This document shows positions 39,416 to 52,365 of a stretch of DNA of 64,000 nucleotides, piece by piece. The translations under genes were made by a program, and so were the position numbers. Source of the DNA: Escherichia coli (GTDB lineage: Bacteria > Pseudomonadota > Gammaproteobacteria > Enterobacterales > Enterobacteriaceae). The DNA is taken from NCBI RefSeq assembly GCF_003018255.1, contig NZ_CP027440.1. One strand, 5' to 3'. Under the pieces are notes generated by a model. The model did not search any database and was not told the origin of the DNA. It worked only from the letters and a program-made list of their open reading frames with translations. The first letter of the stretch is position 1, and each line of letters starts with the position of its first letter.

Positions 39416-39493
39416 TTCGGGCGGATAAGGCGTTTTTGCCTCATCCGCCGCTCTGTACACAATGCCTGATGCGACGCTGGTGCGTCTTATCAT
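39416..39493. repeat. REP elements downstream of proX
   Basis: GGGCGGATAAGGCGTTTTTGCCTCATCCGCC and GCCTGATGCGACGCTGGTGCGTCTTATCA palindromic units. Confidence 0.75.
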
Positions 39494-39600
39494 ACCTACA
39501 AACCACACCGCACATTTCAACAATCTATCTTTCATCCCATATTCATCAACATCCGCTATTATTGATTTCCAGCTTAATCATCACCTGATGAACAAAAATA

Positions 39601-48155: not shown

Positions 48156-48229
48156 GAAAGACGCGCATTTGTTATCATCATCCCTGAATTCAGAGATGAA
48201 ATTTTGGCCACTCACGAGTGGCCTTTTTC
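48156..48229 (+). ncRNA. micA: Hfq-dependent small RNA MicA (SraD)
   Basis: GAAAGACGCGCATTTGTTATCATCATCCCTGAATTCAGAGATGAAATTTT followed by the terminator GGCCACTCACGAGTGGCC-TTTTT; lies between luxS and gshA on the opposite strand to both. Confidence 0.85.
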
Positions 48230-50857: not shown

Positions 50858-51004
50858 GGTCTTCTCGCAAGTCGAAAAATATGACGCTACTTTAGCGTAA
50901 TTGCTTGATTTTGTCGCTGATGGAGAAGGAGAAGAAAATTCAGGAAATGGATAAAGTAGTTATTTAGAAATGAGATATTTTTGAAGGAAATTTTTTGGAG
51001 AAGA

Positions 51005-51137
51005 TGGTGCATCCGGGAGGATGACTCACTGGCGTTCGCCCTTCGGGCCGCTGCTGGCGCAACGTTATCCTCCCTGGTGCCTGCGGTTAATACCGCTACC
51101 TCTTCGATACCTTCATTGCTGAAGGTTACGGAGAATA
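51005..51137 (-). repeat. tRNA-Arg 3'-end-derived structured element (copy A)
   Basis: Begins with an exact copy of the first 18 nt of the reverse-complemented tRNA-Arg gene (TGGTGCATCCGGGAGGAT), then diverges into a ~115-nt segment with internal inverted repeats (GCATCCGGGAGGAT...ATCCTCCCTGGTGC; ACCTTCA-ttgc-TGAAGGT). Confidence 0.55.
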
Positions 51138-51214
51138 TGGTGCATCCGGGAGGATTCGAACCTCCGACCGCTCGGTTCGTAGCCGAGTACTCTATCCAGC
51201 TGAGCTACGGATGC
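51138..51214 (-). tRNA. argQ: tRNA-Arg (anticodon ACG)
   Basis: 77-nt exact reverse complement of GCATCCGTAGCTCAGCTGGATAGAGTACTCGGCTACGAACCGAGCGGTCGGAGGTTCGAATCCTCCCGGATGCACCA. Confidence 0.9.
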
Positions 51215-51277
51215 ATTGGGAAAATTTATTTTACTGCTGATATTGATATCGCTACTAAAGCCATATCAAGTAAGAGA

Positions 51278-51354
51278 TGGTGCATCCGGGAGGATTCGAA
51301 CCTCCGACCGCTCGGTTCGTAGCCGAGTACTCTATCCAGCTGAGCTACGGATGC
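51278..51354 (-). tRNA. argZ: tRNA-Arg (anticodon ACG)
   Basis: Identical 77-nt copy; the 63-nt spacer is near-identical to the next spacer. Confidence 0.9.
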
Positions 51355-51416
51355 ATCGGGAAATTTATTTTACTGCTGATATTGATACCGCTACTAAAGC
51401 CATATCAAGTAAGAGA

Positions 51417-51493
51417 TGGTGCATCCGGGAGGATTCGAACCTCCGACCGCTCGGTTCGTAGCCGAGTACTCTATCCAGCTGAGCTACGGATGC
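51417..51493 (-). tRNA. argY: tRNA-Arg (anticodon ACG)
   Basis: Identical 77-nt copy. Confidence 0.9.
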
Positions 51494-51557
51494 ATCTGGA
51501 AACTTACTTTACTGCAGATTTTTTGATACCGCTACTAAAGCCGTATCAAGTAAGAGA

Positions 51558-51691
51558 TGGTGCATCCGGGAGGATTACTCGCCTTGCGGCTCGCCCTTCG
51601 GGCCGTTGCTAAAGCAACGTTATCCTCCCTGGTGCCTGCGGTTATTACCGCCACCTCTTCCATACCTTCATCGCTGAAGGTACGTAGAATA
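51558..51691 (-). repeat. tRNA-Arg 3'-end-derived structured element (copy B)
   Basis: Paralogue of copy A (TGGTGCATCCGGGAGGAT + divergent structured ~115 nt), located inside the 198-nt argY-argV spacer. Confidence 0.55.
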
Positions 51692-51768
51692 TGGTGCATC
51701 CGGGAGGATTCGAACCTCCGACCGCTCGGTTCGTAGCCGAGTACTCTATCCAGCTGAGCTACGGATGC
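51692..51768 (-). tRNA. argV: tRNA-Arg (anticodon ACG)
   Basis: Identical 77-nt copy, 3 nt from serV. Confidence 0.9.
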
Positions 51769-51771
51769 AAA

Positions 51772-51864
51772 TGGCGGTGAGGCGGGGATTCGAACCCCGG
51801 ATGCAGCTTTTGACCGCATACTCCCTTAGCAGGGGAGCGCCTTCAGCCTCTCGGCCACCTCACC
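51772..51864 (-). tRNA. serV: tRNA-Ser (anticodon GCU), long variable arm
   Basis: 93-nt reverse complement of GGTGAGGTGGCCGAGAGGCTGAAGGCGCTCCCCTGCTAAGGGAGTATGCGGTCAAAAGCTGCATCCGGGGTTCGAATCCCCGCCTCACCGCCA. Confidence 0.9.
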
Positions 51865-52179
51865 ACACGCCTCTTACGAGTGCTTCGAAGAACTTGTTTA
51901 TCGCTCATCGTCGCTGCGTGGCGCACATATTACTTTCTGAGACTTATAAGTCAAACAATTTTTCCCACACTTTTATCGTTTGCACACTTCACGCTCAATT
52001 AGTCTGTAAAAACGTCAAAAAGAGTGTTTTATCAACAGAAAAACGGAGGTCTGTCAGATAGCAGTAATGCAAAAAAATGGAGACTTAAGTTGAATGAACG
52101 GGAGTAAAGCGAAAAGACAATGGAGTGAAGAAGAAATTTTGAGGGTGCGTCTCACCGATAAAGATGAGACGCGGAAAGA

Positions 52180-52365
52180 TTAGTAACTGGACTGCTGGGA
52201 TTTTTCAGCCTGGATACGCTGGTAGATCTCTTCACGGTGAACAGAAACTTCCTTCGGGGCATTTACGCCAATACGTACCTGGTTGCCCTTTACCCCTAAA
52301 ACTGTCACGGTGACCTCATCCCCAATCATGAGGGTCTCACCAACTCGACGAGTCAGAATCAGCAT
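52180..52365 (-). CDS. csrA: Carbon storage regulator CsrA (RNA-binding global regulator)
   Basis: 61-aa [64 protein letters not shown]. Confidence 0.97.

Follow-up and report, generated by a model that had tools for sequence, protein, structure and literature searches.

Two elements in the arg tRNA cluster of Escherichia coli are raV- and raQ-type tRNA-linked repeats related to RtT RNA

Introduction

The tRNA-linked repeats (TLRs) of Escherichia coli K-12 comprise 22 copies at 10 loci and are without known function (Stenum et al., 2021; PMC8144298); according to the same source, they were first seen by Egan and Landy (1978) and later catalogued by Rudd (1999). Their hallmark is that the final 18-19 bp reproduce the 3' end of whichever tRNA or rRNA gene lies upstream, and those of the arg operon, which the strain table (Table S1) lists with argY/Z/Q, are named raQ, raZ, and raV (PMC8144298). 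The present study characterised two elements in the arg tRNA cluster of a 64,000-nt stretch of E. coli contig NZ_CP027440.1 (assembly GCF_003018255.1), hereafter the window: e2, located in the spacer between argV and argY, and e1, located beyond the last tRNA-Arg gene.

Other described members of the family accompany different stable RNAs. RtT RNA (rttR) corresponds to the 178-bp repeats of the tyrT-tyrV operon, while RrA, RrB, and RrF follow the 5S rRNA in rrnA, rrnB, and rrnD, likewise carry a copied 3' end, and are transcribed within a stable-RNA operon. Both rtT and RrA/B/F have been shown to be transcribed and processed to a discrete RNA; RrB extends from 3 nt past the 5S rRNA to 3 nt past the repeat, both ends being ascribed to RNase E, for which the copied 3' end has been proposed as a processing signal (PMC8144298). 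The strains constructed by Stenum et al. include one from which all 22 TLRs had been deleted, hence these repeats are dispensable (PMC8144298). RrA, RrB, and RrF contain GGA motifs and bind CsrA and Hfq in vitro, whereas the tRNA-linked TLRs are predicted non-binders of CsrA. Like TLRs, the 3'ETS-leuZ sponge is a by-product of tRNA precursor processing, but it is short, unstructured, and acts by base pairing, whereas TLRs have no known target. A literature search for RNAs of the arg-operon spacers and for the names raQ, raZ, and raV found nothing beyond PMC8144298.

Results

The two elements are TLRs of the serV-argV...argQ operon, e2 matching raV and e1 matching raQ of K-12, and are divergent members of the RtT family. 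They are thus already known rather than new, and the finding made in the window can be closed as explained; the first-pass annotation, which relied on the letters of the window, had overlooked this described family (raV/raZ/raQ in the K-12 arg operon, with the RtT RNA of the tyrT operon as a relative). The names were taken from Table S1 of PMC8144298 and matched to K-12 by operon position, the interval in the window corresponding to csrA - serV - argV...argQ - yqaB, with csrA upstream at 52180-52365 and yqaB downstream.

Both elements lie on the same strand as the tRNA genes and directly 3' of one of them, e2 beginning one base past the CCA of argV and e1 one base past the CCA of the last arg gene, and both end in an exact copy of the tRNA-Arg 3' end (Table 1). 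The 18-mer TGGTGCATCCGGGAGGAT occurs 6 times in the window, against 0.00 occurrences expected by chance, namely at the 3' ends of the four tRNA-Arg(ACG) genes, which are identical in sequence, and at 51005 and 51558, so that the two extra tRNA-Arg 3' ends reported by the first-pass annotation are genuine. That annotation had the elements start with the tRNA end; the shared end holds, but the orientation is reversed: read as RNA, on the minus strand, each element has the tRNA end at its own 3' end. The 198-nt spacer between argV and argY resolves into e2, occupying its first 134 nt, and a normal 64-nt inter-tRNA spacer.

Operon, positions, and near-identical sequence are common to the window elements and the K-12 TLRs, with 1 and 4 base differences between copies at equal positions. 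In K-12, TLRs sit after argV, argZ, and argQ; the window strain has the first and the last of these, while the third K-12 copy, raZ, lies between argZ and argQ. RefSeq annotates nothing at either element, in an identical strain or in K-12, which is consistent with their sub-threshold score against the Rfam model of RtT.

At relaxed thresholds, the RtT model (RF00391) matched both elements on the minus strand with 23.5, 29.2, and 34.7 bits, covering model positions 1-130 in a search of 1151 bases and positions 46-130 when the spacer alone was searched. The match is closest in the 3' half, which is near-identical to the consensus AACGuuGC..GCaaCGgCCCGaAGggCGA..GAGUaAUCC. Scores against this model depend on the host gene, being 133-137 bits for Tyr-linked TLRs, 82-94 for Pro, 70-86 for full-size Lys, about 60 for short Lys, 43.7 for Arg(CCG), and 34.1 for 5S-linked copies; at the gathering score the model finds the Tyr, Pro, and Lys types and misses Arg(ACG), Arg(CCG), and 5S-linked ones. 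A second covariance model, R1, was built only from TLR cores of hosts other than Arg(ACG), although the pattern used to collect these cores derived partly from the window elements, and it has exactly two matches in the 64 kb, e2 (49.3 bits) and e1 (40.3 bits).

The K-12 tyrT-tyrV-rttR region has the same layout as the arg elements, with Tyr-specific ends (GGGGAAGGAU ... AUCCUUCCCCCACCACCA). The 3' half of RtT, consisting of hairpins hp3 and hp4, GA, hp5, GAGUAAUCC, and the host 3' end, is homologous to that of the arg type; in both, the repeat is placed right after the tRNA and a long stem joins the 5' strand to the copied tRNA end. The arg type differs in carrying the Arg rather than the Tyr host end, in lacking hp1 and hp2 (about 40 nt), and in having two 5' hairpins of its own. 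A small protein like the tpr of the tyrT repeats was considered and rejected, since each open reading frame (ORF) of the region is short, lacks conservation, or runs into a tRNA gene.

Table 1. Coordinates of the two TLRs, their parts, and the surrounding genes and signals in the window.
Feature	Position	Strand	Evidence or detail
TLR e2, 134 nt, counterpart of K-12 raV	51558..51691	minus	RtT 34.7 bits, E 1.9e-5; R1 49.3 bits
e2, exact 19-nt copy of tRNA-Arg 3' end (T-loop A58 to CCA)	51558..51576	minus	
e2, conserved core	51581..51619	minus	hp3 CGUUGC-UUUA-GCAACG 51604-51619; hp4 GCCC-GAA-GGGC 51593-51603; GA; hp5 GCC-GCAA-GGC 51581-51590
e2, 5' strand of long stem, GCACCAGGGAGGAU, pairing with copied tRNA 3' strand 51562-51575	51622..51635	minus	Fold, inverted repeat
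e2, arg-type hairpins	51638..51684	minus	Hairpin A 51661-51684; hairpin B 51638-51651
TLR e1, 133 nt, counterpart of K-12 raQ, in operon trailer	51005..51137	minus	RtT 23.5 bits; R1 40.3 bits
e1, exact 18-nt copy of tRNA-Arg 3' end	51005..51022	minus	
e1, conserved core	51028..51064	minus	hp3 51049-51064 (one G-U pair); hp4 51038-51048; degenerate hp5 51028-51035
e1, 5' strand of long stem, pairing with 51009-51022	51067..51080	minus	Fold, inverted repeat
e1, arg-type hairpins	51083..51126	minus	Hairpin A 51109-51126; hairpin B 51083-51096
tRNA-Ser(GCU)	51772-51864	minus	ARAGORN, Rfam
tRNA-Arg(ACG), argV position, source of 3' end copied by e2	51692-51768	minus	ARAGORN, Rfam
tRNA-Arg(ACG)	51417-51493	minus	ARAGORN, Rfam
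tRNA-Arg(ACG)	51278-51354	minus	ARAGORN, Rfam
tRNA-Arg(ACG), last in cluster, source of 3' end copied by e1	51138-51214	minus	ARAGORN, Rfam
Promoter-like site 5' of tRNA-Ser (serV); probable operon start	51927-51954	minus	Consensus match only
Terminator-like hairpin followed by T run, 106 nt 3' of e1	50884-50898	minus	Consensus match only

In the predicted fold, two 5' hairpins precede a 12-13-bp helix formed between GCACCAGGGAGGAU and the copied AUCCUCCCGGAUGC, which leaves ACCA free and encloses hp3, hp4, and hp5. The corresponding inverted repeat had been located correctly in the earlier annotation, its arms (51009-51025/51064-51080 and 51562-51578/51619-51635) being 17 nt long, 82% complementary, and 38-40 nt apart; hairpin A of both elements is the ACCTTCA-nnnn-TGAAGGT hairpin also described there. 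The enclosed insert is likewise present, with three predicted hairpins rather than the single GC hairpin proposed. Both minimum-free-energy and centroid folds contain the acceptor/T-stem-like helix with its free ACCA, interrupted by two bulges or mismatches and without a T-loop, so that the suggested minihelix-like pairing of the copied 3' strand with an upstream complementary strand is borne out at the level of prediction. If formed, the predicted coaxial helix of 12-13 bp ending in ACCA would resemble p4.5S RNA and the tRNA minihelix substrates of RNase P and of the CCA-adding enzyme; the elements would differ from these in having a multi-hairpin junction in place of the T-loop and two mismatches in the acceptor part.

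The elements fold more stably than shuffled sequences, with z-scores from -5.0 to -6.4 over both elements and both strands (-5.0 and -6.4 on the minus strand). They are paralogous, sharing 87.4% identity over 133/134 nt, and unpaired columns account for 11 of the 17 differences between them (Fisher p=0.03), in agreement with the loop bias noticed at first reading. The changes in paired columns include one compensatory replacement (G-C to A-U) and one of A-U by G-U.

The number of TLRs in the arg cluster varies. Ten csrA-anchored loci carry from none to four elements, intact or decayed, at varying positions, including tandem and truncated copies. Of 5426 complete E. coli genomes, 5158 had matches to a TLR-specific 116-nt query, at 1-6 places each (median 2), and the remaining 268 had none, giving an arg-cluster copy number of none to six among the genomes of this species. 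Where the distal site lacks a TLR, it reads CCA-TATTCTCC-AAAAAATTTCC; where one is present, GCACCA-T(A/C)TTCTCC stands on both flanks of the element. Since direct repeats of 18-26 nt flank the element, it could be lost or gained by recombination between them. At two csrA-anchored loci with alaS about 80% identical to that of the window (L130:3183-3332 and L131), a decayed TLR-like core is present in the 150-nt first arg spacer; it scores 23.4 bits with R1, and its 3' end, ..GAGTCACTCTACCGATTAGGCCATCA, does not match tRNA-Arg.

To place the arg elements within the wider family, one genome per species was scanned with the core GCRRCGRCCCGAAGGGYGA, which yielded 120 loci, about half of them chance matches in GC-rich coding DNA; as most loci were collected with this 19-nt pattern, part of their similarity arises by construction. 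The core was found directly 3' of tRNA-Tyr, Lys, Arg(ACG), Arg(CCG), Pro, and Ser genes or of 5S rRNA in Gammaproteobacteria, linked copies occurring in Enterobacterales, Gilliamella, Marinobacterium/Amphritea/Neptuniibacter, Chromatiaceae, and Halieaceae. These elements are always in tRNA orientation and abut the CCA, and the copied end matches the host gene in every element with an intact 3' end: in about 50 elements linked to Tyr, Lys, Pro, Arg(ACG), and Arg(CCG), an automated check found that the last 18-19 nt exactly repeat the 3' end of the element's own upstream tRNA, and reading of the sequences showed that Ser- and 5S-linked copies end in the 3' ends of those genes.

Full-size units measure 155-180 nt. 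Their 5' part begins with the complement of the host 3' end, followed by AUGAGAA and hp1, which contains the 5' strand of the host T-stem and UUCGA; their 3' part consists of hp2, hp3, hp4, GA, hp5, GAGUMAU, and the host 3' end. With UUCGA upstream of the core and AAUCC downstream, the host T arm looks as if it had been split by the conserved core. Both hp1 and hp2 are missing from the Arg(ACG) type and from a short Lys type. When duplex energies between the 5' region and the 3' strands of cognate and non-cognate hosts were compared, the result was clear only for Tyr (17/19) and Arg(ACG) (12/20), the comparison being confounded for other hosts by G-rich terminator hairpins.

Several further observations concern individual types. 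The 5S-linked TLRs of Siccibacter, Superficieibacter, and Budvicia (L111:79-202, L017, L105, L113, L114) end in AACTGCCAGGCAT, the 3' end of 5S rRNA, and carry the upstream complement GGGCAGTTCACTACTC...GAGAGTAGG, a split-palindrome design as in the tRNA-linked copies. In lysT-type arrays (L038, L047, L044, and others), an intrinsic-terminator-like hairpin and T run, AAAGGCGCCCTAAAGGCGCCTTTTT, directly follow the copied CCA of each unit, so that downstream units would be transcribed only via read-through. When the arg-type 5' strand was compared (51067-51080 and 51622-51635 in the window, with L126-L133 and L098/L104), its common variant GGAAGGAU proved to mismatch the Arg T-stem and to equal the Tyr-type 5' strand, and the short Lys type has the junction GGAUAACGUUGC in common with the arg type. 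This hints at a transfer of short TLRs from one host tRNA to another, followed by conversion of their 3' ends.

Conservation of the arg type was assessed on 19 distinct copies from E. coli, Enterobacter cloacae, Kosakonia cowanii, and csrA-anchored loci with alaS 80-85% identical to that of the window, those at 83-85% being termed Salmonella-like and Citrobacter-like by this measure. Standard pairs filled 91.6% of pair cells, compared with 30-46% in slid controls, and 26 cells had changed on both sides of a pair, compared with 8.2 ± 2.2 in shuffles; the stems are therefore kept across Enterobacteriaceae, with compensatory changes in hp5 and the 5' hairpins, in line with the structural constraint suggested at first reading. 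The consensus fold from RNAalifold likewise contained the long stem, hairpin B, and hp3-hp5, but its covariation term was small. In an alignment of 34 cores from other hosts, 12 of 20 pairs had changed on both sides, corresponding to 63 double-change cells against 19.1 ± 3.1 in shuffles (0/500), and hp5 alone occurred in 43 distinct sequence versions, most of them palindromic.

As regards the surroundings of the elements, the ordinary 62-64-nt arg spacers (51215-51277, 51355-51416, 51494-51557) hold a conserved hairpin of their own, TTGATACCGCT...AGCCGTATCAA, which is kept, with sequence changes, at the Salmonella-like and Citrobacter-like loci. A tRNA-Arg(tcg) called by ARAGORN on the plus strand at 51677-51748 is a false positive, being the antisense image of argV. 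Other RNA genes of the window are tmRNA (8805-9167, plus strand), MicA (48156-48227, plus strand), and a tRNA-Met (17049-17124, minus strand), together with a match to the REP-derived naRNA4 just at threshold (39419-39496, plus strand); no TLR core adjoins any of them.

Discussion

The explanation that we regard as most likely is that e2 and e1 are raV/raQ-type TLRs which are co-transcribed with the tRNAs, excised by tRNA-processing enzymes, dispensable, and turned over by recombination. It builds on the family membership, anatomy, conservation, and copy-number dynamics observed above; for the arg TLRs, transcription, processing sites, and release of a stable RNA would follow the precedent of 5S-linked TLRs and rtT. 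The elements would be transcribed within the polycistronic tRNA precursor, and as the terminator-like hairpin lies beyond e1, this element too would fall within the transcript. The copied 3' end, presented in an acceptor/T-stem-like helix with a free ACCA and a tRNA-like U-rich trailer, may then recruit the enzymes of tRNA 3' maturation, with RNase E cutting just downstream, RNase T/PH trimming, and possibly RNase P acting at the 5' side of the helix. Processing signals were among the options named in the first-pass annotation, and for the copied 3' end this is the role that the literature favours. Each element would thereby be freed as a discrete, strongly folded RNA of about 80-135 nt, without an essential role. 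At the DNA level, unequal recombination between repeats would account for gain, loss, and homogenisation with neighbouring tRNA genes, so that the ends stay identical to those genes.

Several results weigh against this explanation. The opposite strand folds equally well, and the structure may act at the DNA level; counts of G-U versus A-C pairs in hp3 and hp5 (5 vs 1 and 2 vs 3) did not single out a strand under selection. The arg elements do not reach the RF00391 gathering score of 45 bits. Most arg-type stems are simply conserved, with only 3-6 covarying pairs, and in K-12 and at loci of 83-85% alaS identity, changes without compensation (GGAAGGAU, GGGAUGAU) occur in the long stem's 5' strand. 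Distal copies are decayed in several genomes, which suggests weak constraint.

Among the alternatives, we give tentative consideration to a selfish or mobile cassette, although we think it less likely than not to be correct. Its core, about 75 nt and four hairpins long (hp2 with tandem G-A, hp3, CCC-GAA-GGG, and hp5, followed by GAGUAA), would insert, or once have inserted, at GA^A sites in hairpin-forming DNA, repeatedly and across Gammaproteobacteria. Insertion could have targeted the T-loop TTCGA^AT in palindromes derived from tRNA, the 5S rRNA 3' end, or a fixed site inside ERIC; Pasteurellaceae 'sRNA 22' loci and free 74-nt repeats are further candidate carriers. TLRs would then persist as hitch-hikers on highly expressed stable-RNA operons and not for any host function, which is compatible with the processing model outlined above. 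The split of the host T arm in full-size TLRs (..GGUUCGA, core, AAUCC..) and the occurrence of filled and empty sites in the arg cluster both speak for such a cassette, whereas the absence of hp1 and hp2 from the arg type speaks against it.

ERIC repeats have long been known to carry an internal insertion of about 70 bp. An insert of about 78 nt, composed of hp2-hp5 and GAGUAA in the same order as in TLRs, was found in ERIC-type palindromes of Dickeya oryzae (L048-L051), at dxs-yajO in E. coli strain 104 (L134:401-539), and at one further locus (L135); the palindromes in Dickeya and at dxs-yajO were recognised as ERIC by the ERIC consensus. Alleles of dxs-yajO among E. coli strains comprise no ERIC, ERIC alone, and ERIC with the insert, the last differing from ERIC alone by a clean 78-nt indel, GGGGTGAACGA|...|GCAGCC, in otherwise identical flanks, and 690 of the 5426 E. 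coli genomes carry the composite of ERIC and insert somewhere. A 74-nt repeat with the same hairpin order, AATTGCCGGGAGCAATTTTTAACGTTGC..GCGACGGCCCGAAGGGTGA-hairpin-TCAT, is dispersed or in tandem in Alcanivorax sp. 24 (L116-L123), Pseudomonas subflava (L115), and two other loci (L080, L078); it is not linked to tRNA, scores 20-33 bits with R1, and has no Rfam match at E<=0.1. The consensus of RF02902, AaHKsRNA22 (Aggregatibacter sRNA 22), likewise shows the four-hairpin order of the TLR core; it scores 31.6 bits against the Dickeya cassette (L048:1277-1379) and a weak 16.8 bits against e2 (51547-51641, minus strand), both below its gathering score.

R1, modelled on TLR cores, matches the ERIC composites, the Alcanivorax and Pseudomonas repeats, and the AaHKsRNA22-type cassette, and leaves the ERIC-only allele unmatched. 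ERIC with its insertion and AaHKsRNA22 thus present the same four-hairpin cassette as the TLR core, but their carrier is an ERIC palindrome or a Pasteurellaceae sRNA locus, with no copied tRNA end. Against mobility stand the lack of an associated transposase or integrase, the capacity of ordinary recombination to give indels between direct repeats, and insertion boundaries that are ambiguous by 1-3 nt. Because most loci were retrieved with the core pattern itself, the relatedness of TLR core, ERIC insert, and AaHKsRNA22 is suggestive and not conclusive. No paper linking the ERIC insert to TLRs or RtT was found.

It is improbable, in our estimation, that the freed RNA acts in trans, whether by titrating Hfq, CsrA, or another protein, as suggested for RrA/B/F, by serving as a decoy for enzymes acting on tRNA ends (for instance RNase P, RNase T/PH, poly(A) polymerase, or the CCA-adding enzyme), or as a sponge like 3'ETS-leuZ. 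The covarying core is conserved across several gammaproteobacterial orders, the predicted helix with its ACCA tail would mimic a tRNA minihelix, location in a tRNA operon would make expression track growth rate, and RrB binds Hfq and CsrA in vitro (PMC8144298). However, the strain without all 22 TLRs could be built, and the role in the stringent response first reported for rtT was retracted (PMC8144298); copy number ranges from none to six, and some copies have decayed. A CsrA sponge, a candidate prompted by GGA motifs and by the neighbouring csrA, is not supported, the 19 tRNA-linked TLRs having scored <0.01 as CsrA binders in the predictor of the authors (PMC8144298).

Still less probable is a cis-acting operon element that insulates the folding of the tRNAs, blocks Rho loading on an untranslated transcript, or shields the 3' end from exonucleases. 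The constant tRNA orientation and direct abutment on the CCA would fit such a role, as would the position of e1 between the last tRNA and the terminator-like hairpin, and the TLR located between tRNA-Tyr and tRNA-Gly in Yersinia and Acerihabitans must be read through. Nevertheless, the normal 62-64-nt spacers of the same operon work without one, and the cluster is devoid of TLRs in part of the E. coli genomes (268 genomes; locus L125).

Decayed tRNA-Arg pseudogenes, as the first-pass annotation had proposed among other options, or attL/attR scars of an integrative element targeting the tRNA 3' end are very improbable and largely refuted by the shared core: an 18-26-nt direct repeat does start in the T-loop, as at integrase att cores, and the 5' strand GCACCAG-GGAGG resembles the acceptor 5' strand (GCAUCCG) plus the T-stem 5' strand, but the body is not tRNA-derived, has neither D arm nor anticodon arm, and is a module found with at least 6 different host RNAs (Tyr, Lys, Pro, Arg(CCG), and Ser tRNA and 5S rRNA among them), while only about 115 nt separate the repeats, with no credible ORF or integrase, and neither ARAGORN at the element coordinates nor the Rfam tRNA model (RF00005, E<=10) finds a tRNA.

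Identification of e2 and e1 as raV- and raQ-type TLRs has consequences for annotation, as RF00391 is geared to Tyr, Lys, and Pro members and consequently leaves Arg(ACG), Arg(CCG), and 5S-linked TLRs unannotated and likely to be 'rediscovered' repeatedly. If the TLR core and the internal insert of ERIC were indeed the same element, two old puzzles of enterobacterial repeats would be joined, and TLRs, the ERIC '70-bp insertion', and AaHKsRNA22 would form one family of small mobile structured element. A 3' end that copies its host, combined with a core that covaries across several gammaproteobacterial orders, argues for selection on something.

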